This document shows, one piece after another, positions 7,170 through 17,721 of a stretch of DNA of 37,348 bases; positions within the stretch are counted from its first letter, which is position 1, and every line of letters begins with the position of its first letter. The stretch lies in NCBI GenBank assembly GCA_964414825.1, contig CAYPZM010000005.1, positions 1 through 37,348 on the forward strand. Direction: 5' to 3'. This stretch comes from an uncultured Cytophagia bacterium. GTDB lineage: Bacteria > Zhuqueibacterota > Zhuqueibacteria > Residuimicrobiales > Krinioviventaceae. The notes beneath the pieces are model-generated. The model was not told where the DNA came from and ran no database searches. It saw only the letters and a list, made by a program, of their open reading frames with translations. The translations under genes and the position numbers were made by a program.

Positions 7170-9467
7170 CTAGTGATTGTGCCCAACGGTAAATCCAAAC
7201 AATACCCGCCTCGGCACCAACGGACCATAAGTATATCCGGCATCTCGAAATATGCCGCTGTCAAAATCGTTTTGAAAATCATTCGTAAGATTATAAACGC
7301 CCGCGGTCAAGGTACCCAAAAATCCCCCAGCCAGCGGCACACGGAACGATGCGATCACATCAAACGTTATAAAGTCTTTTGTTTTTTCAAGACGATCCTC
7401 TGTTATGTAACCGGCATAATGTGGCACATACATACTGCCGGTGTACTTGCTGGTAAACATCAGGTTGAATCGCGTCGATACATCATACGAGCAGCGCAAA
7501 CTGCCATACACATTCGGCGTACGATAAATGCGGTTCGAACCAAAATCGGGCTCGGGTTCATCCAACAAGCTCGATTGAAGCGTAACGCCGGACAGCAGCT
7601 CGACGTTGCGCAGGCGCAGACCAAACTCGGCTTCGACACCTTGCACGCGCAAACCGGGGCCGTTGATGCGATAAAATTCAAATTCGCTGGTCGCGGGGTC
7701 GTCGCCCTCGGTTAATAAAAACGTGTTTTCCAGGCGCGTATAAAATCCATTCATACCGAATTTGAGGCCAATCACATCAATAATATCCTGATACTCCAAT
7801 CCGCCGTAAACGGTGTGGCCGCGTTCTTCTTTTAAATCCTGGCGATTGCGAATGATTTGACCCTCGCCGCCCACCTGGGTGATGTGCAAATCTTCGTCAA
7901 ACACCTGCGGCGCTTTGAACCCGGACGAATAGCCGCTACGAAAGGTGATTTCATTCGACAAATTGCTCTTAAGCGCGATCCGCGGGCTGACAATGAGCGA
8001 TTGAATGGCCGAATGCTTGTCAAAGCGCGCTCCATAAACTAATTCTGTGGATTCATTCGCGCCAAAAGTGTAGGTGTCTTGCAAAATAAATCCGAGGTCG
8101 GAATAGGTTTCATCAATTTCCCGGTCATAAGCGACGGCAATATCGTGGATCGAATCCTGGCTGTATTGCAGTCCAATGATAGTCGCATGCCGGCCCCAGC
8201 GGTAATTGGCGCGCAGCCCGCTCACAAGCAGCGGATTTTCCGTCGTTCCATACGCATCGGGATCTTGCTCGGCACCATAATAGGTATTTCGGTTGGTTAG
8301 CGCAAACGAGGCATAGGCTTTGTAGTCGAAAAACGGCGTCGGGCGCTGCGTCCATGCCAGCGAGCCGCCGTAGCGATCCGTTTGCGCCCACTCGGCAATA
8401 TCGGCTTTATGCGGCGCCAGGTGAAATTTGTTGCCACCGCGTCGATCCTCGTGAATATAGTGCAATTGCACGGAAATCTCGCTGCGCGTGTGCGGCGTGA
8501 TAAAAATGTTGGCGCCAATTGCCTGATTTTTGAGTTCGCCAATTTCGCTGAAACCGTCATTGTTGTGATCATACGGCAAACGCTGGCGCACCGTGCCGAA
8601 CAAAATGCCCCTAACCGTGCCCGAAGCATTAACCCGCGAAATGCTGCCGCCAAAGCGATGATCTCGGGTGTTGTTGATGGTGCCGTTATTGTAATCCAGA
8701 TTAAATTCATTGTGTGTGGGCCGACGCGTAATCAGGTTCACTACGCCGCCAATTGCTTGTCCGCCGTACAAAGAGGAGCCGCCGCCTTTGACAATTTCCA
8801 CCCGCTCGATCATCTCCTGCGGCAGTTGTTCCAAACCGTAAACCCCGGCCAGACTGCTTATGACCGGATCGCTGTCGATGAGGATTTGCGTATAATGCCC
8901 CTCGAGCCCCAGCAACCGCACCTGGGTGAAATTGCAATTCTGGCAGTTGGCTTCCACGCGTACACCGGTTTGAAAATCCAGAGCCTCGGCCAAATTATTA
9001 ACTTTTTGGCGCACTAGCACATCCCGCTGAACCACGGACGTTTTTACCGGCGAATTTGCATAAAGTTGCGGCATGCCGGTGCCGGTCACCACGATTTCGT
9101 TCATTTCAATAATGGAAGGCTTTAGAGAAAAATTGATGCTCGATTCCGAACGAACGCGAACCGTCACAGGGATTTCTAAAATATCATAACCCATCATGGT
9201 CGCACGCATGTTGTATTCACCGGCGGGAACACCGCGAATGATATAATTGCCATCCGGACCGGAAGCGGCGCCAATGTTTGTGCCGAGCAGCACGATGTTG
9301 ACGCCGGGCAAGGCTTCGCGGGTCGAGTCATCCGTGACCGTGCCGTACACCAGGCCATAGTTTTGGCCGTGTTGATGGCGGTGCCGGCGTTCACGATGTT
9401 GTGACAATAAGGATGTGGATAATATGATTAAAAGCAATATCATAAAACGAAATTTGAAATTCAACAT
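7170..9467 (-). CDS. TonB-dependent outer-membrane receptor with N-terminal carboxypeptidase-regulatory-like domain, probably metal uptake
   Basis: Signal peptide, His/Arg-rich start, EIVVTG TonB-box-like segment, plug motif NCQNCNF, IERVEIVKGGGSSLYG, C-terminal YNLTN...YGP..PR. Confidence 0.92.
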   Translation of the reverse strand: MLNFKFRFMILLLIILSTSLLSQHRERRHRHQHGQNYGLVYGTVTDDSTREALPGVNIVLLGTNIGAASGPDGNYIIRGVPAGEYNMRATMMGYDILEIPVTVRVRSESSINFSLKPSIIEMNEIVVTGTGMPQLYANSPVKTSVVQRDVLVRQKVNNLAEALDFQTGVRVEANCQNCNFTQVRLLGLEGHYTQILIDSDPVISSLAGVYGLEQLPQEMIERVEIVKGGGSSLYGGQAIGGVVNLITRRPTHNEFNLDYNNGTINNTRDHRFGGSISRVNASGTVRGILFGTVRQRLPYDHNNDGFSEIGELKNQAIGANIFITPHTRSEISVQLHYIHEDRRGGNKFHLAPHKADIAEWAQTDRYGGSLAWTQRPTPFFDYKAYASFALTNRNTYYGAEQDPDAYGTTENPLLVSGLRANYRWGRHATIIGLQYSQDSIHDIAVAYDREIDETYSDLGFILQDTYTFGANESTELVYGARFDKHSAIQSLIVSPRIALKSNLSNEITFRSGYSSGFKAPQVFDEDLHITQVGGEGQIIRNRQDLKEERGHTVYGGLEYQDIIDVIGLKFGMNGFYTRLENTFLLTEGDDPATSEFEFYRINGPGLRVQGVEAEFGLRLRNVELLSGVTLQSSLLDEPEPDFGSNRIYRTPNVYGSLRCSYDVSTRFNLMFTSKYTGSMYVPHYAGYITEDRLEKTKDFITFDVIASFRVPLAGGFLGTLTAGVYNLTNDFQNDFDSGIFRDAGYTYGPLVPRRVLFGFTVGHNH

Positions 9468-10108: not shown

Positions 10109-10136
10109 ACACTGCCGAGAAACCTCTCGACAGTGT
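10109..10136 (-). terminator. Intercistronic hairpin after the porin gene (partial terminator or stability element)
   Basis: Minus strand ACACTGTCGAGA-GGTT-TCTCGGCAGTGT followed by CTCATTTTT. Confidence 0.55.
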
Positions 10137-10145
10137 TTAAAAAAC

Positions 10146-11201
10146 TTAGAACATATAGCCGACGCCCACGTTCAGCAGCGTTGTTTCGCTGTCGTCCAGT
10201 TGCCGCGCACGTACGCCGTAATCAAATTTAAAAACGACCTGGTCGATGGGTTTGACCGTGAGACCGAGCATCCATTTTTGATAATGATAGGCCTCCTCGG
10301 CATCTCCGCCCGTCATAGTCGAACTGGCAGTATTGTAATCAGTCCAGCGCACCCAGGGGATGATCTCGGTGGGCACATTCAACAGGGAACCGATATTGTA
10401 GCCGAGGTCAACATAATAGCCCATGGACGATTCGATTTCGTAATCATCAAACGAGATACTGCCGATTTCAAACGTGCTATAAATATGGTTCAAGTGATAT
10501 TGAGCATGAAACTCAAAAAGCGAAAGCCCGACAGGATCGGCATCTCCACGAACCGCATTGTTTTTCGTATAAGAAAATCCAAAGCGCGTACCAGGAAAAC
10601 CGGCATAATCCATTCGCAAAGCAAAAAGCAGCTCTTCGGCATTGGCTTTGTAGCCCTTGAGGCGTCCACCACGAATGCCAGAGCTGGCGCTGAATCCGTC
10701 GCCATTTAACCCTTCCATAATGGTCAAATTGTATTCGATATTGCTCACATATCCATACAGAGCTGCGCCATTACCAAACCACGTGGTCGGAATGATGACG
10801 CTGGCATATTCGGGCCGCTCGACGCTTAGAAATGTGGGCGGCTCGTGCGTGATATTAATGATGCCGACCGGCGCCAATACCACACCGGCGCGAAAGCCGA
10901 AATAGGAATTGGGATGAAAATCCACATAGGCCTGCTCCAGCTCCAGCTCACCCTGGCCGCTTTTTACAAAGTTGTGCTCCAGCTCCACTTCGGCGGCAAA
11001 CGACCACTTTGGCGTCCATTGGTGGCCATAGAACAAGACAAATCGATGAAAATCGAGTGTTTGGGTGTCTTGCGTTTGGTTCACATTATAATGCAATTCA
11101 CCATAGCCGCCAATGGACGATTGCGGCTCAAAAAAGTCATCCTGGGCCCAAAGCAGGCTTGCCAGAGATAGACAGAATACGGAAAGGAGTTTGATATTCA
11201 T
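10146..11201 (-). CDS. Outer-membrane beta-barrel porin (OprO/OprP-like)
   Basis: Signal peptide, IGGYGELHYN, DFHRFVLF, EVELEH, LEQAYVDF, HEPPTF, IIPTTW, terminal aromatic GVGYMF. Confidence 0.8.
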   Translation of the reverse strand: MNIKLLSVFCLSLASLLWAQDDFFEPQSSIGGYGELHYNVNQTQDTQTLDFHRFVLFYGHQWTPKWSFAAEVELEHNFVKSGQGELELEQAYVDFHPNSYFGFRAGVVLAPVGIINITHEPPTFLSVERPEYASVIIPTTWFGNGAALYGYVSNIEYNLTIMEGLNGDGFSASSGIRGGRLKGYKANAEELLFALRMDYAGFPGTRFGFSYTKNNAVRGDADPVGLSLFEFHAQYHLNHIYSTFEIGSISFDDYEIESSMGYYVDLGYNIGSLLNVPTEIIPWVRWTDYNTASSTMTGGDAEEAYHYQKWMLGLTVKPIDQVVFKFDYGVRARQLDDSETTLLNVGVGYMF

Positions 11202-11233
11202 AACTTCTCCAATACATTAAATGAATATAGTAG

Positions 11234-11262
11234 CGATAGAGTGACACCACATCAATCTATCG
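11234..11262 (-). promoter_or_regulatory. Hairpin between the RAPP ORF stop and the porin RBS
   Basis: Minus strand CGATAGA-T-TGAT-GTGGT-GTCA-C-TCTATCG, preceded by a pyrimidine-rich tract TTCCATTCCTAAACCATTC. Confidence 0.5.
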
Positions 11263-11283
11263 AATGGTTTAGGAATGGAAATT

Positions 11284-11652
11284 TTAAGATTTCGTGGTAG
11301 GAGGTGCGCGTGGACAGAGAATAAATGAACAAGCAGCGGAATTTTGTGCAGCGAGTCGTAATACAAGTCCAGCTAAAATTAGCAGGCTAAAAAGAATGGG
11401 GGAAACAAACGTGAGTATTTGCTCAATATGAGTAAAAAGATGAAAGGTTAGCAGTTCCAGCGAGGAATGCGAATGCTCGGCACCCCCACCACCTTCCGGC
11501 ATGGCGTGCGTGTGCACGATAATTATGCCATTTGGAAGCCGGTGCAAATGCGCATACATATAAACCAGCAGCAAGAAGGATAGTATGGAAGCCAGAACAA
11601 CAGCGGTGACCAGGCTGCAGGTTCGGTTATGTCGTTTTCTAAAACAAGGCAT
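11284..11652 (-). CDS. His-rich two-TM protein ending in RAPP; putative arrest/leader peptide, 122 aa
   Basis: ATG at 11652 with GAGGAG about 13 nt upstream, overlapping the regulator stop. Basic N-terminus, TM1, HLH..IVHTH..HSH loop, TM2, then CPRAPPTTKS*. The longer ORF-track call (11802) is an overlap extension. Confidence 0.75.
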   Translation of the reverse strand: MPCFRKRHNRTCSLVTAVVLASILSFLLLVYMYAHLHRLPNGIIIVHTHAMPEGGGGAEHSHSSLELLTFHLFTHIEQILTFVSPILFSLLILAGLVLRLAAQNSAACSFILCPRAPPTTKS

Positions 11653-12190
11653 TGGGAGAAAACAACTCCTCTTTTCCGGCAAAATAGCAAGCTTCTTCGC
11701 AGAAATCGCACGATTCATCGGCATGGTCGCAGTGATAAACATGGCGGATAAATTCATTACGAAATGTAACGGCTGCGGGATGTTGCGAGAGATATAATCC
11801 AATAAAGGAAAGCATTTTTGCGCTGGTTTCCTGGGTTAATAAATGTTCGATTTTGCAGGCATCGGCTTCGGCAATATTTGGAGGAAGACCGAGCACATCG
11901 GCAAAAAAGGTTTGCATGAGACGCCGTTTGCTGAGCACAGCATTTACCAGCTCGCGGCCGTGTGCCGAAAGGCGTAGGAATTTATTGGGATCTTCCAAAA
12001 TATAGCCTTTTTCCTTGAGCTTTTTCAAAGTGATGGAGACACTGCCGCGCGTGAGTTGCAGATAATTAGCCACGTCCACGGCGCGTGCATAGCCCTGTTC
12101 TTTGGTAAGCGTATGAATGGCCAAAAGATGATGCACCGAGCTGTGTTGCAGTTCGGCTTGATCAAATTGTTTCCACACGTCTTTAATCAT
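11639..12190 (-). CDS. DtxR/MntR family metal-dependent transcriptional regulator with Cys-rich C-terminal tail
   Basis: HTH YARAVDVANYLQLTRGSVSITLKKL and dimerisation motif FFADVLG...AEADACKIEH. Start taken at MIKDVW (12190), after AAGG. Confidence 0.9.
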   Translation of the reverse strand: MIKDVWKQFDQAELQHSSVHHLLAIHTLTKEQGYARAVDVANYLQLTRGSVSITLKKLKEKGYILEDPNKFLRLSAHGRELVNAVLSKRRLMQTFFADVLGLPPNIAEADACKIEHLLTQETSAKMLSFIGLYLSQHPAAVTFRNEFIRHVYHCDHADESCDFCEEACYFAGKEELFSPNALF

Positions 12191-12205
12191 TTTGTTGACC
12201 TTGCC

Positions 12206-12227
12206 TTTGTTATATATATCAAACAAA
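12206..12227. promoter_or_regulatory. Candidate autoregulatory operator TTTGTT-N10-AACAAA
   Basis: AT-rich inverted repeat 16 nt upstream of the DtxR-like start codon. Confidence 0.35.
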
Positions 12228-12411
12228 TTGAATATAGTACAAACAATACAAACAAGCAACACTTTTTATCTTGTCAAGTTCATTTGCTTTAAAATATAGA
12301 GGTGAGAAATGATTATTTATTTTAGATTTTAATTTGATTTTGATAAAAAATTGCTCTATAATAGTTTAAAATAAATTTAATATTGAATCCAAATACAGGA
12401 GGAAATAATTA

Positions 12412-12909
12412 ATGCATGAAAAGAGTATCGAACTATTGAACCGAGGCGTTGCAGACGAACTGGCAGCCGTACATCAATATATGTATTTTCATTTTCATTG
12501 TGATGACCAGGGTTACGATTTGCTGGCCGGACTGTTCAAACGAACGGCAATCGGCGAAATGCTGCACGTTGAAGAGCTTGCCGAGCGCATTCTGTTTTTA
12601 AAAGGCGAGGTGGAAATGGCGCCTTCGGCTGAAGTGAAGAAAATCCACGACGTCAAGGAAATGCTCGAAATGGCCGCGCAAATGGAAGAAGCCGCGCAAA
12701 AAGATTACAACGCCTGGGCCAATGAATGTGCAAAAAATGCAGATTCTGTTTCGAAAAAAATATTTGAAAGCCTGGTCGAGGATGAAGAAGGCCACTATGA
12801 CCAATTTGATAACGAGCTGGAAAACCTGAAAAAATTTGGTGATAATTTCCTCGCCCTGCAATCCATTGAACGCAGCAAAAACATGGCTTCCGGAACCGCG
12901 CAAGAATAA
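12412..12909 (+). CDS. bfr: Bacterioferritin
   Basis: ELAAVHQYM, EMLH (heme Met next to ferroxidase Glu), LAERILFLKG, EEGH. AGGAGG RBS. Confidence 0.9.
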   Translation: MHEKSIELLNRGVADELAAVHQYMYFHFHCDDQGYDLLAGLFKRTAIGEMLHVEELAERILFLKGEVEMAPSAEVKKIHDVKEMLEMAAQMEEAAQKDYNAWANECAKNADSVSKKIFESLVEDEEGHYDQFDNELENLKKFGDNFLALQSIERSKNMASGTAQE

Positions 12910-12931
12910 CAGTTGAGCCATTCCAAGTTGA

Positions 12932-12975
12932 GAAACTCATCTTTGGGGATATGCCAAGGATGAGTTTTTCTATTT
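12932..12975 (+). terminator. Intrinsic terminator after bfr
   Basis: AAACTCATCTTTGG-GGATATG-CCAAGGATGAGTTT followed by a T-rich tract. Confidence 0.7.
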
Positions 12976-13020
12976 CCCATCCTTTTCCCTTCCCCCTTTT
13001 TCTCTATTTAAAAAAAATGT

Positions 13021-13069
13021 TTGCATCTCAAATTAAATGTTTCTATTTTCTATATGTTTAAAGCATATA
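13021..13069 (+). promoter_or_regulatory. Sigma70-like promoter plus palindromic operator upstream of padR
   Basis: TTGCAT-N17-TATTTT (13021-13049), then TATATGT-TTAAA-GCATATA (13051-13069). Confidence 0.55.
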
Positions 13070-13083
13070 TAAGGCGACTTGAC

Positions 13084-13455
13084 ATGCCAAACAGACATAG
13101 ACAACGAAATTGCTCCTGTTTTAACGAACGCCGGCAACGCTGGGTCGAACCATCCATTTTGTACCTTTTGTGGGACGGTCCCAAACACGGCTACGAATTG
13201 ATGGCGTCTTTGCCGGAACTCGGATTTGTTCAGGGCGCAGCAGACCCCGGCGCTATTTATCGCACTTTGCGCGTAATGGAAGATAACGAACTGGTACACT
13301 CCGAATGGGACACCACTGGCACCGGCCCGGCAAAACGCACGTATACATTGACGGATGAGGGCCGCGAACACTTGTCCTGCTGGCGCGACGCCTTGAAGCA
13401 GCGCCGTGATTCATTAGATGCGTTTATTCGGCGCGTTGAAAAGATCATCACATAA
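13084..13455 (+). CDS. PadR family transcriptional regulator with N-terminal CxC
   Basis: EPSILYLL..PKHGYEL..DPGAIYRTLRVME..V.SEWD..GPAKRTY.LT..G. Start taken at MPNRHRQRNCSC. Confidence 0.9.
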   Translation: MPNRHRQRNCSCFNERRQRWVEPSILYLLWDGPKHGYELMASLPELGFVQGAADPGAIYRTLRVMEDNELVHSEWDTTGTGPAKRTYTLTDEGREHLSCWRDALKQRRDSLDAFIRRVEKIIT

Positions 13456-13468
13456 GAAGGAAAGAATC

Positions 13469-13828
13469 ATGAAACTTGCCATTAGCTGTAAAGAGCACTC
13501 TGAAGATGCGGATGTGGATCCACGATTTGGGCGAGCTCTCTACTTTTGTATTTATGATACGGATAGTGACGCCTTTGAATTTATCGACAACGCACAAAGC
13601 TTAAATTCGCCAAGTGGCGCTGGCGTGCAAGCGGCGCAGACCATACTAAATGCCGGTGTCTCCGCCTTGTTGACCGGCCATTGCGGCCCCAAAGCGTTTC
13701 GAGCGCTTGCCGCTGCCAATGTGCAAATTTATACAAATGTCGCCGGAACCGTGCAGGAGGCGGTTTCGGCGTTTAAAGATCATAAAGTAAAACTTGCCGA
13801 TGAAGCGGATGTGGAGGGGCATTGGTGA
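13469..13828 (+). CDS. NifB/NifX (MTH1175) family protein, orange protein (ORP)-like
   Basis: VDPRFGRA, SGAGVQAAQ, LLTGHCGPKAFRAL, C-terminal DVEGHW. AAGGA RBS. Confidence 0.9.
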   Translation: MKLAISCKEHSEDADVDPRFGRALYFCIYDTDSDAFEFIDNAQSLNSPSGAGVQAAQTILNAGVSALLTGHCGPKAFRALAAANVQIYTNVAGTVQEAVSAFKDHKVKLADEADVEGHW

Positions 13829-13830
13829 GC

Positions 13831-13909
13831 CGGGATACGAGGTACGGGATTGAATCATCAACAACGTAAAAAATCTCGAGTTACATATTCCAGTATCGAG
13901 CATCAAGTA
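13831..13909. repeat. Degenerate heptamer repeats in an intergenic spacer
   Basis: CGGGATA-CGAGGTA-CGGGATT (13831-13851) and TCCAGTA-TCGAGCA-TCAAGTA (13889-13909). Confidence 0.45.
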
Positions 13910-13928
13910 ATCTATTTTGGAGGTCTTT

Positions 13929-14129
13929 ATGCCTGGAGGCGACGGAACCGGACCAATCAACGATGGTGCCGGGAGTTGGAGACGCGGCCGCGGACGACGC
14001 GGAGTGGGGAGCACAGTCGAAACTTGCGTTTGTCCGAAATGCGGCCACGTTCAGGAGCATCTGAGAGGGAAGCCATGCACACAAACCGTTTGTTCGCAAT
14101 GCGGCGCTTTTATGACGCGGCAACGATAA
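13929..14129 (+). CDS. Small protein with DUF5320-like N-terminus (MPGGDGTGP), Arg/Gly linker and Cys-rich domain
   Basis: GGAGG RBS. Motif CVCPKCGH...H..GKPC....CSQCG. Confidence 0.8.
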   Translation: MPGGDGTGPINDGAGSWRRGRGRRGVGSTVETCVCPKCGHVQEHLRGKPCTQTVCSQCGAFMTRQR

Positions 14130-14166
14130 ACGGTTATCATCGGTTTAAATTCAATACGGAGTAAAC

Positions 14167-14361
14167 ATGCCGGCAAAACGGAAACACGTTATGGGCAGCG
14201 GCGGCAACTGCATCTGCCCGAAATGCGGCTATACCCAAGCGCACGAACGCGGTGTGCCATGCCAGGAGGAACGTTGTCCGCACTGCAATGTGCATTTGTT
14301 CCGTGAGAGTTCGGCCCATTTTCGACAATTACAGCAGAAAAAATCTCAGCACGAGGAGTAA
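14167..14361 (+). CDS. Small Cys-rich metal-binding protein
   Basis: GGAG RBS. GGNCICPKCG...HERGVPC....CPHC, the same motif as the preceding ORF. Confidence 0.82.
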   Translation: MPAKRKHVMGSGGNCICPKCGYTQAHERGVPCQEERCPHCNVHLFRESSAHFRQLQQKKSQHEE

Positions 14362-15083
14362 TGACCACGACACCAAAACGATTAAACCGCTCACAGATCA
14401 ATTTTATTATCGATATTATTTTGATGGTGGTGATGATGCTGGCCGCAGGCGTGGGATTGCTCATCAAATATGTGTTGCTGCCCGGATTTCAATGCAACAT
14501 CAAATACGGCCGAGATGTTGATTTGGCTTTTTGGGGGCTGGATCGGCATCAATGGGGTACGGTGCATCTGATTATAAGTTTGGTTTTAGTAGCGCTTGTT
14601 GCGCTGCACATTGTGTTGCATTGGCGGCAAATTAAATGTTTGTACAAAAATTTGGTTCGCGATCATCAAAAGCGCATCGTGCTCGCGTTCGGACTGCTGC
14701 TTGTTTGTGCGGTATTGGCAATTGGACCGTTGTTTATCAAACCGCAGGTCGTTGCGTCGGTCGGTCATGGCACTGGTCGATTGCACGAGTCAACGATTGA
14801 GCACGTCAGCCATATTTCCGACCGTCAAAGCACCCGTGTCGAGTCTGAAACAGAGCATCAGGTGCATGCTTCTCTCTCCAATGACATTCCGATTTACGGT
14901 TCTATGACGATAAGGGAGGTGGCTGCTCAATACAACGTTTCTGCGAAAGAGCTGGCGCAACACGTCGGCGTTCCCGAAACCGAACTCGACCAGCGTTTGG
15001 GGCGCTTGCGTCGACAGTACAGCTTTCAGATGAGTGAAATTAGAGCATACATTGAAAACCAACAGAACTCAAATCAACAATAA
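14361..15083 (+). CDS. DUF4405-family membrane protein with C-terminal soluble domain
   Basis: Three hydrophobic helices, GLDRHQWGTVHL..LHIVLHW, His-rich linker, C-terminal GSMTIREVA motif. TAATG coupling to the upstream ORF. Confidence 0.78.
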   Translation: MTTTPKRLNRSQINFIIDIILMVVMMLAAGVGLLIKYVLLPGFQCNIKYGRDVDLAFWGLDRHQWGTVHLIISLVLVALVALHIVLHWRQIKCLYKNLVRDHQKRIVLAFGLLLVCAVLAIGPLFIKPQVVASVGHGTGRLHESTIEHVSHISDRQSTRVESETEHQVHASLSNDIPIYGSMTIREVAAQYNVSAKELAQHVGVPETELDQRLGRLRRQYSFQMSEIRAYIENQQNSNQQ

Positions 15084-16028
15084 CCTGACGCATAATGTTT
15101 TTGGCCCGGTGCCCTCGCGACGATTGGGTCGCAGCATCGGCATCAACAACATTCCGCCAAAAATTTGCACCTACGGTTGCATCTACTGCCAGGTGGGGCG
15201 AACCACGCATTTCACGGTGCATCGCCAACCGTTTTATGAGCCAAATGAATTATTAGACTTGGTTCGCGAAAAGGTAAATTATTTCGAGTGGGCCGGCGAG
15301 AGTATTGATGCATTAACGATTGTGCCCGATGGTGAGCCGACACTCGACTCCCAACTGGGAGCGCTCATCCGTGGATTAAAAAACTTTAATATACCTGTGG
15401 CTGTGTCACCAATGCGTCACTGCTGTGGATGCCTTCGGTGCGCCACGATCTTTTGGCTGCTGATTGGGTGTCGCTTAAAATTGATGCGGTTTCCGAAACG
15501 TTGTGGAGAAAAATAAATCATCCAACGCAGGATTTGAGCTTGCAAACTGTACTCGAAGGCATGAATATATTTGCCAGCGAATTTGGTGGCACATTGGTGA
15601 CCGAAAGCATGTTTTTACAAGGCCTCAATGAACATATATCACACGTGCGAGTTCTGGCCGAGTTTATCGCACAGGTGAATCCCCGCATCGCATACATTGC
15701 GGTTCCCACTAGACCACCGGCCGTTGGGTCGATTCGGACGGCAGATAGTGAAGCCTTGACACGCATCTTTCACGTTTTTGCAACTGCCGGACTGAACGCT
15801 GAATATCTAATCGGTTATGAGGGAAATGCTTTTTCCTCCACGGGAGATGCGAAAAATGACCTGTTGAGTATAACCGCCGTACATCCCATGCGGCATGATG
15901 CGGTGGAAGCGCTGTTACACCGTAATAAAGCGTCATGGCGAGTTGTGGAAGACCTCGTGACCGAGAATCGTCTTTTAAAAATTGAATTTGATAACTTTGT
16001 ATACTATGCGAGACAGAGTCGGACATGA
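15034..16028 (+). pseudogene. Radical SAM protein (COG0731/TYW1-like) broken by a 1-nt deletion at about 15405/15406
   Basis: FGPVPSRRLG, CTYGCIYC and DGEPTL in frame 1. GTG-TC-ACC-AAT-GCG-TCA-CTG-CTG-TGG restores V-x-T-N-A-S-L-L-W if one base is added, continuing into the 15429..16028 frame. Start codon is uncertain. Confidence 0.8.
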
Positions 16029-16861
16029 TTGTTAGTATTGCCAGCGGCAAAGGCGGCACCGGGAAAACCACGATTGCGACCAATTTGGCGGCGGCGTTAT
16101 CGGATCGGCAGGTGCAGTTGCTCGACTGTGATGTCGAAGCGCCCAATAGCCATATTTTTTTAAAACCGGAAATCAATAAAACCGAAACGGTCAACATTCT
16201 GGTGCCGCATGTTGACGAAAACAAATGCACATTGTGCGGGCGCTGCTCCGAGGTATGTCAGTATCATGCCATCGGCGTGTTTGGCAAAAGTGTGTTGGTG
16301 TTTCCCGAACTCTGTCACGCTTGCGGTGGGTGCTCGCTTGCGTGTCCCGAAAATGCGATTAACAAAGTGCCGCATGCGGTGGGGGAATTGCAGTTGGGCC
16401 GCGCAAACGGTATCGAGTTTGTCACCGGACAGCTCAACATTGGCGAAGCCAAAGCCACACCGGTGATTTCTGCTGTTAAAAGTAATATTCGGTACAACAG
16501 GATTACCATTATTGATGCGCCACCGGGAACGTCATGTCCGGTGGTCGAGACGGTTCGAGGATCGGATTTTGTCTTGCTGGTCACCGAGCCCACACCGTTT
16601 GGCCTCAACGACCTCAAGCTGGCGGTCGAGGTAATGCGAAAATTAAAATTGCCGTTTGCCGTGATCTTGAATCGCGCCGATATGGGTGATGATGGGGTAG
16701 AACGATTTTGTGAGAAGCAACGAATTGACATCCTGTTGCGAATTCCACAACGACGAGACATTGCCGAGGCCTATTCCGGCGGCCAGTTGCTCATCGAGGC
16801 GTTGCCGGAATATCGCGAAATGTTTCGGACTCTTTATGCAGAACTTGAGGTGCGGGCATGA
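16025..16861 (+). CDS. MinD-superfamily P-loop ATPase with inserted 2x[4Fe-4S] ferredoxin domain (COG1149)
   Basis: ASGKGGTGKTT, DCDVEAPN, CTLCGRCSEVC, CHACGGCSLACP, DAPPGTSCP, VTEPTPFGLNDL. Confidence 0.92.
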   Translation: MIVSIASGKGGTGKTTIATNLAAALSDRQVQLLDCDVEAPNSHIFLKPEINKTETVNILVPHVDENKCTLCGRCSEVCQYHAIGVFGKSVLVFPELCHACGGCSLACPENAINKVPHAVGELQLGRANGIEFVTGQLNIGEAKATPVISAVKSNIRYNRITIIDAPPGTSCPVVETVRGSDFVLLVTEPTPFGLNDLKLAVEVMRKLKLPFAVILNRADMGDDGVERFCEKQRIDILLRIPQRRDIAEAYSGGQLLIEALPEYREMFRTLYAELEVRA

Positions 16862-17721
16862 AAGAATTGGTGACGATCAGCGGCAAAGGCGGAACCGGAA
16901 AAACCAGCGTGCTCGGCGCACTGGCGGCACAAGCACAAAATGCCGTACTGGCTGATTGTGACGTGGATGCCGCCAACCTGCACGTGCTGCTCAAACCCCG
17001 CATTCAACAAAAATCGGCGTTTTATGGCGGCAAAATCGCGCAAATTAGCGCGCCGTCTTGTATCTCCTGCGGCGTATGCCGGGAGGTTTGTCGATTTGAT
17101 GCCATCACTCCCGATTTCCAGGTGGATGAGATTGCCTGTGAAGGCTGCGGTGTGTGCGTATGGAAGTGTCCGGTCGATGCTATTTCGTTCACTCCGCACA
17201 AAAACGGCGACTGGTTCATTTCGCAAACCCGTTTTGGCGATATGGTACACGCAAAACTCGGCGTTGCCGAGGAAAATTCAGGAAAATTGGTTACATTGGT
17301 ACGCCAGGAGGCGAAAAAGCTGGCCGAAGAAAACCATCGCGATCTGCTGCTTGTGGATGGCCCGCCCGGCACTGGCTGTCCGGTTATTGCTGCCGTTGGC
17401 GGCGCTGATGCCGTGCTCATCGTTGTGGAGCCGACGCTTACGGCGATTCACGATATGCAGCGCGTGGTCAAGCTGGCACGTTTTTTTAATGTGCAACCGT
17501 TTGTGGTTATCAATAAAAGCGATTTAAATGACGAGCTCTCAACTCAAATTTGTGACTTTTGTGAAAAAGAACATTTGATGATTGTCGGCCGCATTCCGTA
17601 TGACCTGGCGATTGTGCGCGCTCAGCTCCAGGGCAAGACGATTTTTGAGGTTGCGGATGCCGCACTAAAGGAGCAGTTTGTTGAGTTGTGGAAAAATGTG
17701 CAGGTAGCTATTAGCGTTTAG
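16858..17721 (+). CDS. Second MinD-superfamily P-loop ATPase with inserted ferredoxin domain (COG1149)
   Basis: ISGKGGTGKTS, DCDVDAANL, CISCGVCREVC, CEGCGVCVWKCP, ENSGKLV, DGPPGTGCPVIA. ATGA overlap. Confidence 0.92.
   Translation: MKELVTISGKGGTGKTSVLGALAAQAQNAVLADCDVDAANLHVLLKPRIQQKSAFYGGKIAQISAPSCISCGVCREVCRFDAITPDFQVDEIACEGCGVCVWKCPVDAISFTPHKNGDWFISQTRFGDMVHAKLGVAEENSGKLVTLVRQEAKKLAEENHRDLLLVDGPPGTGCPVIAAVGGADAVLIVVEPTLTAIHDMQRVVKLARFFNVQPFVVINKSDLNDELSTQICDFCEKEHLMIVGRIPYDLAIVRAQLQGKTIFEVADAALKEQFVELWKNVQVAISV

Follow-up and report, generated by a model that had tools for sequence, protein, structure and literature searches.

Histidine-rich small membrane proteins with RAPP or RGPP endings as candidate metal-sensing arrest leaders of outer-membrane uptake operons

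The DNA analyzed here is a 37,348-nucleotide stretch from an uncultured Cytophagia bacterium (hereafter the window). On its minus strand it encodes P0001, a 122-amino-acid small membrane protein with three HxH motifs and a RAPP sequence close to its stop codon (11284-11652, stop included). This open reading frame (ORF) belongs to a real, previously unannotated gene family. Judging from sequence comparisons, we propose that the family consists of metal-sensing translational-arrest leaders for outer-membrane metal-uptake operons, a reading to which we assign a probability of about 0.6. The family would probably be the histidine-based equivalent of the known copper-sensing leader peptides. A preliminary description of the window had suggested such a role for P0001, and the features on which it built recur in homologues. 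The HxH motifs are kept in an alignment of 50 sequences, with five histidines invariant and the sixth at least 90% conserved. Of 61 genomic copies, 60 have a C-terminal RAPP or RGPP, and an outer-membrane uptake gene lies downstream in 49 of 51 distinct cases.

Leader ORF and family conservation

The P0001 ORF, delimited by its translation and by homologues, runs on the minus strand from an ATG at 11652 to a TAA at 11284-11286. Its N-terminus is basic (MPCFRKRHNR) and leads into a hydrophobic stretch that forms a first transmembrane segment (TM1) or signal anchor (residues ~13-33, 11554-11616). The three HxH motifs follow: H35-L-H37 (11542-11550), H47-T-H49 (11506-11514) and H60-S-H62 (11467-11475). 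A second hydrophobic segment, also seen in the structural model, forms TM2 (residues ~79-101, 11350-11418). The RAPP codons CGC GCA CCT CCT (residues 115-118, 11299-11310) constitute the candidate ribosome-arrest site and stand four codons before the stop, leaving the tail TTKS. The leader ATG overlaps the final 14 nucleotides of the upstream gene for a DtxR/MntR-type regulator. Every part of this architecture lies where the preliminary description had placed it, with RAPP at exactly 11299-11310. The arrangement is far beyond chance because it recurs across a family.

The extent of this family was determined at both protein and genome level. In an exhaustive HMMER search against 1.84 billion cluster representatives, 49 family proteins reached E<=1e-3 and six of them E<=1e-10; most representatives are 115-135 amino acids long. 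When the 167 genomes of the window's phylum were searched in six frames with the family profile, 48 had members, including 33 of the 105 genomes with a completeness of 90% or more and a contamination of 5% or less. Some genomes carry two to four copies. The 53 regions around these genomic matches, together with the window, gave 61 family genes, and the homologues share open frames and the same motifs at 25-45% identity. P0001 itself matches no Pfam or NCBIfam family. Gene callers often miss these leader genes, as with the window's own ORF: a word-index protein search, which relies on called genes, returned no match for P0001. The same search with the family profile gave 12 matches, none of them named, and a related-locus search with a 10-sequence alignment gave two loci only.

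Conservation is concentrated in the histidines and in the ending. In the alignment of 50 sequences, H35, H37, H47, H60 and H62 are invariant, and G42, H49, R115, P117 and P118 reach a conservation of 90% or more; the alignment has no conserved cysteine column. RAPP (38 copies) or RGPP (22 copies) lies in frame 2-25 residues before the stop, and the tail that follows is unconserved, with lengths of 6, 3 and 4 residues being the commonest. R[AG]PP followed by a short tail closes 43 of the 49 representatives; another five carry RSPP, RDPP or RPPP instead, and the last, of 105 amino acids, is truncated and stops after TM2. At the RAPP/RGPP positions of the 61 copies, all six arginine codons and all four codons each of alanine, glycine and proline are used. 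Since every synonymous codon occurs, the constraint falls on the peptide rather than the RNA.

The sole copy without an in-frame motif, at locus L082 (8061-8804), has RAPP in another frame. The TonB receptor behind it is reduced to two fragments (~residues 131-165 and 725-766); this leader is frameshifted and the whole locus looks decayed. The motifs are rare elsewhere in the window's genome, where crude ORFs of at least 150 amino acids contain RAPP five times and RGPP 0 times, compared with 21 occurrences of PPAR, 20 of PPGR and 20 of RAPA. RAPP and RGPP are the two cores shown by experiment to give robust arrest, resistant to elongation factor P (EF-P), in several sequence contexts (PMC12992588). 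According to the same source, proteomes are depleted of both motifs, which are instead enriched close to the C-terminus of small exported proteins encoded upstream of TonB receptors and other metal genes.

The distance between the histidines and the ending is also constrained. We compared 104 non-identical sequences, having dropped four (P0017, P0022, L074, L092) that the motif patterns used for the measurement did not fit. The third HxH is separated from the arginine of RxPP by 55-57 residues in 88 sequences and by 53-59 in 103. From the first HxH to the second, the distance is 12 residues in 93 sequences, while the loop leading to the third varies from 11 to 21 residues. The ~50 residues ahead of RAPP are thus fixed in length and unconserved in sequence, with no alignment column from the third HxH to RAPP reaching a 50% majority among the 50 aligned sequences.

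With regard to topology, the density of lysine plus arginine in 48 sequences is 0.21 in the N-terminus and 0.07 in the net-acidic histidine loop, which argues for an N-in, loop-out orientation. An AlphaFold2 model computed with the family alignment (mean predicted local distance difference test score, pLDDT, 82) contains a helix at residues 6-33, a beta-hairpin at 34-38/44-48 and a helix at 64-112. The hairpin is predicted to set the first two HxH motifs on neighboring strands, the first on strand 1 and the second on strand 2. A structure search of the PDB with this model gave 0 matches at E<=0.001. The two-TM architecture proposed earlier holds for P0001 but is not universal, as TM2 is hydrophobic in 94 of the 104 sequences and clearly absent in a few. 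Members that lack it would export their RAPP, so a co-translational role fits them better than a role of the mature protein.

Six loci (L047, L050, L053, L063, L064, L072) carry two family genes in tandem ahead of one TonB receptor. At all six, the upstream copy ends in RGPP and the downstream copy in RAPP.

Downstream genes and candidate metals

For each copy, the downstream gene was taken as the first same-strand gene of at least 150 amino acids, with tandem copies sharing one. After exclusion of the decayed L082 and of three loci cut off by a contig edge, 51 distinct downstream proteins remained. TonB receptors with Plug, barrel and CarboxypepD_reg domains account for 31 of these, and another 17 belong to an unannotated porin-like family of ~440 amino acids with a signal peptide (alignment A3). 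The remaining three are the window's porin, a 185-amino-acid unknown protein with a TonB receptor three genes on, and an amidohydrolase. At 15 of the 17 porin-like loci, a ZnuA-family binding protein and two ABC-3 permeases come next; the other two loci are at a contig edge. The porin-like proteins (L084:8635-9936 and 16 homologues) have a coiled-coil-like N-terminal part and are probably outer-membrane channels. No Pfam or PDB relative was found for A3, and kinship with the window's porin was rejected, the profile comparison giving a probability of only 1.7%.

In the window, the leader is followed on the same strand by three genes whose Pfam domains agree with the porin, FMN-protein and TonB-receptor assignments made earlier. 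The first encodes the outer-membrane porin P0003 (10146-11201; Porin_O_P 1.2e-8, OMP_b-brl 3.5e-6), the second the exported FMN_bind-domain protein P0004 (9568-10083; PF04205 1.9e-7) and the third the TonB-dependent receptor P0005 (7170-9467; Plug, barrel, CarboxypepD_reg). A terminator-like hairpin lies just 3' of the porin gene (10109-10136, minus strand), with a 12-pair stem that includes six GC pairs and the tail CTCATTTTTA. Given this strong hairpin before the FMN_bind gene, the porin may be the sole gene directly behind the leader on that transcript. In relatives, the P0005 orthologues directly follow the leader.

The mature N-terminus of P0005, after the signal peptide, reads QHRERRHRHQHGQ. 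Basic, histidine-rich tags of this kind (QHRERRHRHQHGQ, QHHHRRYGRHHDE) stand after the signal peptides of the receptors of the window (9380-9420, minus strand), L040, L042, L043 and L046. Similar tags are found on the ZnuA-like proteins of L067, L074 and L084.

Structural relatives of the uptake proteins do not tell the candidate metals apart. The ZnuA-like protein matches solved manganese, zinc and iron binders about equally. The best solved relatives of the receptor are a TonB-linked receptor without a name and the colicin I receptor, and its substrate is not identified thereby. As neither comparison discriminates, the sensed metal is placed among manganese, iron and zinc; it would be a divalent transition metal, with these three indistinguishable.

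The regulator gene upstream of the leader (11639-12262, minus strand) encodes a DtxR/MntR-type protein with a Cys-rich C-terminal tail (Fe_dep_repr_C 7.7e-13, Fe_dep_repress 2.5e-6), which the MntR models of NCBIfam match below their cut-offs. From the N-termini of homologues, translation likely starts at the methionine of MIKDVWKQ near 12190. The preliminary description had pictured the leader as a sensor layered beneath a cytoplasmic repressor. This arrangement would apply to the window and its nearest relatives but not to the family at large, a DtxR-type regulator being upstream in only five of the 61 copies. The Cys-rich tail, HCDHADESCDFCEEACYF (11639-11720, minus strand), is conserved in the four related loci with a regulator, which suggests an extra metal or iron-sulfur (Fe-S) site. 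Divergent from the regulator (12412-17721, plus strand) are genes for ferritin-like, Nitro_FeMo-Co and DUF4405 (cytochrome b-like) proteins and two for Fe-S P-loop NTPases. The window's other neighbors are thus iron-flavored.

Proposed mechanism and rival explanations

Under the arrest reading, the basic N-terminus and TM1 would take the nascent chain to the membrane in an N-in orientation. The next 30 residues would then thread outward, forming a beta-hairpin with one HxH on each strand, accompanied by the third HxH. The ribosome would stall at R-A-P-P, its P site holding Pro-tRNA and its A site the second proline codon. At this point, to judge from the spacing, the third HxH and with it the histidine domain would be ~57-59 residues from the peptidyl-transferase centre, roughly the span of exit tunnel plus translocon. 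TM2 had earlier been placed only partly in the exit tunnel; it ends ~14 residues before the arginine and would therefore be wholly inside. When metal is scarce, the stall would persist and the downstream genes would be expressed, with the stalled ribosome either shielding the transcript from Rho or keeping the next ribosome-binding site open. When metal is present, the six histidines would bind it, the mini-domain would fold and the resulting pull would release the stall. The ribosome would terminate four codons on, and downstream expression would drop. The stall and its geometry draw on what experiments have shown for RAPP and RGPP in other proteins, and on the spacing found across the family, while the membrane targeting and the metal-dependent steps are wholly inferred.

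Two ways in which a stall could act on the RNA were considered. The 82-nucleotide spacer from leader stop to porin start (11202-11283, minus strand) holds the porin Shine-Dalgarno (SD) sequence GGAGAAG and a hairpin at 11234-11262, which consists of a 7-bp stem (CGAUAGA/UCUAUCG) and four inner pairs. Across the family, spacers are AT-rich with a median length of 146 nucleotides (n=46). The Pro-Pro codons often read CCUCC: the first proline codon is CCU in 29 of 59 cases against 10.6 expected from local codon use, in a test that is inflated by related sequences. When the full length is folded, the Pro-Pro codons are often base-paired to the SD sequence of the next gene. We ranked the 33-nucleotide arrest footprint as an SD partner against all tiled windows of the same mRNA at 48 loci. 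It was the best partner at eight loci, within the best 5% at 15 and worse than the median at 13. Masking of the SD sequence by the RAPP codons is thus plausible in roughly a third of the family but has no support at the window locus, for which a Rho-type mechanism as in the copper-responsive leader CruR is the default guess.

Cognate footprint:SD duplexes are also more stable than non-cognate ones (-10.99 vs -10.02 kcal/mol, permutation p 0.0036). This difference was not counted as support, since an in-ORF control region shows the same offset (-8.40 vs -7.60) and it may reflect base composition. No operator motif shared by the family spacers was found; the enriched 7-mers are AT-rich, and ATCGAT occurs without consistent position. 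In the window and its closest relatives only (L040, L042, L043, L044, L046), TCTATCG or its complement CGATAGA lies 45-90 nucleotides past the leader stop, often within an inverted repeat of variable spacing and order; it may be an operator, a promoter element or an RNA stem.

An extended form of the proposal seems to us unlikely as a whole. Here, the six-histidine family would be a widespread set of nascent-chain sensors that use the translocon to read how much manganese, iron or zinc is available in the periplasm. For some of its members, the Ala-Pro-Pro codons (GCU CCU CCN) would double as an anti-SD sequence that masks the next ribosome-binding site when no ribosome is stalled, making the same twelve bases both brake and switch. 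The tandem RGPP-then-RAPP pairs would be two sensors in series.

Several observations weigh against arrest control. Between RAPP and the porin start, the RNA folds like its shuffles (z -0.46; 56 of 200 as good), and the window spacer contains no terminator-like site on the leader strand. As a result, the hairpin noted in the preliminary description is real and exactly placed but has no statistical support as regulatory RNA in the window; its pyrimidine-rich tract, which is modest (15 of the 23 bases after the leader stop), fares likewise. The window's RAPP footprint is an average partner for the porin SD sequence, ranking 59 of 131. Across the family, spacers are not C-rich (C 18.1%, G 16.7%) and lack a C>G skew, and terminators are not enriched in them (5 of 46 vs 2.2 +/- 1.3 in shuffles). 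Two arrangements are unusual for a simple leader, namely the tandem copies at six loci and the position of the window ORF behind a regulator gene rather than at the head of an operon. The direction of control could also be reversed, as in CutF, where metal is reported to induce stalling. Finally, a two-helix hairpin that is confidently predicted, with TM2 so widely kept, may mean that the mature protein has a job of its own, and in a folded protein TM2 plus a linker could by their length account for the fixed spacing.

Such a job is the core of the first rival explanation, in which the family is a stable accessory two-TM subunit of the uptake systems. With metal bound to its periplasmic histidine cluster, it would serve the ABC importer or the receptor as chaperone, relay or sensor, and RAPP would be at most an insertion pause with no control of downstream genes. 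We regard this as a real possibility, if a rather unlikely one. It would account for the predicted two-helix fold with its beta-hairpin (pLDDT 82), for the retention of TM2 in 94 of 104 sequences and for the tandem paralogues, and it agrees with the translational coupling of the window ORF behind the regulator gene and with a spacer that has no significant RNA structure. It is harder to reconcile with RAPP/RGPP motifs that are counter-selected in ordinary proteins, yet near-universal here within 2-25 residues of the stop and followed by an unconserved tail. About 10% of members lack TM2, which would put RAPP on the opposite side of the membrane and is hard to square with a structural role. Likewise, the 50 residues before RAPP are fixed in length but free in sequence.

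It is improbable, in our view, that the family consists of arrest peptides that monitor membrane insertion or secretion (Sec/YidC-type) or the state of the envelope, the histidines serving another purpose. The known RAPP arrest peptides ApdA, ApdP, ApcA and their relatives are reported to be released by translocation force (PMC7897499, PMC10987492), and members of the present family carry a signal anchor and, in most cases, a second TM. However, 49 of its 51 downstream genes serve metal uptake and are not sec or yidC, and outside the RxPP region only histidines are invariant. That the ORF is no gene and overlaps the regulator gene's end by chance has practically no probability left. The empty word-index search would fit this reading, but open-frame homologues that share the motifs in 48 of 167 genomes and in 49 metagenomic clusters refute it.

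Relation to known arrest peptides

To our knowledge, copper is the one metal, and the DUF2946 proteins (CruR and CutF) the one group, for which metal-responsive translational arrest has been shown by experiment. If the arrest reading is true, the histidine family would extend the principle to a new ligand chemistry, that of six histidines, and to other metals, with a ZnuA/ABC-3 importer among its partners. It would also add another bacterial phylum, with look-alike clusters that are labeled mostly Bacteroidota. The family is a compact natural test object for force-coupled release at RAPP, as it combines a 30-residue histidine mini-domain, a spacer of fixed length and free sequence, and the two strongest known arrest cores. 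In addition, a name and a testable role are provided for 'hypothetical proteins' that mark metal-uptake operons.

The general class of small RAPP/RGPP ORFs upstream of TonB receptors is already in print, where it is described collectively and almost all members have a signal sequence (Fujiwara et al. 2025, PMC12992588); what appears to be new here, on sequence comparison, is the histidine family. This family resembles the arrest peptides of that class (ApdA, ApdP, ApcA) in its motif and C-terminal position, its size of less than 300 amino acids, its localization signal and its position upstream of TonB receptors. The main text of PMC12992588 describes no HxH family, though its supplementary tables may list members. 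In its metal-related passages, zinc is not named at all, and histidine is mentioned for two Streptomyces proteins alone. Among the matches listed in a literature search, none joined the RAPP motif, an arrest peptide and zinc.

Other small proteins with the same ending were encountered. In a protein-language search, 30 nameless clusters, labeled mostly Bacteroidota, scored 0.97; DUF6769 was the nearest named cluster at 0.93, and DUF2946 scored 0.92. DUF6769 (PF20558) is an uncharacterized family of mainly Bacteroidota with one clear member in the phylum, the small TM protein P0055 (1e-13), for which the word-index search gave no match besides itself. P0055 (L093:1492-1917, minus strand) contains an HHHH run and ends GLRAPPLA, and DUF6769 may be another family of RAPP leaders. 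Among the papers listed in a literature search, one names DUF6769, on an unrelated subject. Membership of P0001 was rejected, as it has no PF20558 match; hhalign aligns the histidine family with the DUF6769 member over the last 30 residues (the RAPP tail) only, at a probability of 10%. The window's genome also encodes an unrelated 95-amino-acid TM ORF (contig C90:5949-6236, plus strand; L096:1950-2234) with HNHEADLVEHEDCP and the ending TRAPPYLSF. It is followed by genes for a 277-amino-acid lipoprotein and a TonB receptor, and only its RAPP tail aligns with the histidine family. A weak relative at L092:8014-8409 (E 1e-4), upstream of a TonB receptor, lacks the HxH hairpin and any Pfam match. 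It has SHHH and a CIAC (CxxC) motif 43 residues ahead of RAPP, and may connect the histidine family with a Cys-type, DUF2946-like design.

A close parallel is with CruR of Bordetella pertussis (DUF2946, PF11162). Like P0001, CruR is small and exported, bears a metal-ligand motif and has RAPP at the C-terminus, near the stop. CruR lies directly upstream of a TonB-dependent transporter that metal shuts off, and its CxxC-RAPP spacing is conserved to 1-2 residues, with changes to the spacing impairing regulation (PMC9426467). Its arrest at RAPP is reported to have been demonstrated by toeprint (PMC12992588). P0001 does not match PF11162 at E<=10, nor was PF11162 among the matches listed at E<=1 for any of 50 family members. 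It was likewise found in 0 of the 167 phylum genomes at E<=0.001, though 48 of these carry the histidine family. The absent match and the lack of a CxxC exclude membership of DUF2946. They also agree, together with the missing conserved cysteine and a spacing that is fixed as in CruR but at another length, with the earlier characterization of P0001 as a His-ligand analogue of CruR without CxxC. The two differ in ligands (CxxC in CruR, six histidines in three HxH motifs here), in the interval from metal motif to RAPP (45 intervening residues in DUF2946, 55-57 here) and in membrane attachment, CruR having a cleavable signal peptide and a soluble part in place of a signal anchor and second TM. 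Unlike CruR, the histidine family also has ZnuA/ABC-3 importers among its partners.

CutF of Rhodobacter capsulatus, also of DUF2946, is described as an EF-P-sensitive protein with PPP and CxxxC motifs in which metal-induced stalling turns on a detoxifying oxidase. As the targets of the histidine family are uptake genes, control of the opposite sign is expected. In contrast to CutF, an SD-masking helix is supported in only about a third of the histidine-family loci and not in the window. With these differences, the histidine family nonetheless shares the overall design of CruR and CutF: an export signal, a metal motif, a fixed spacer, RAPP, a short tail and a TonB receptor downstream.

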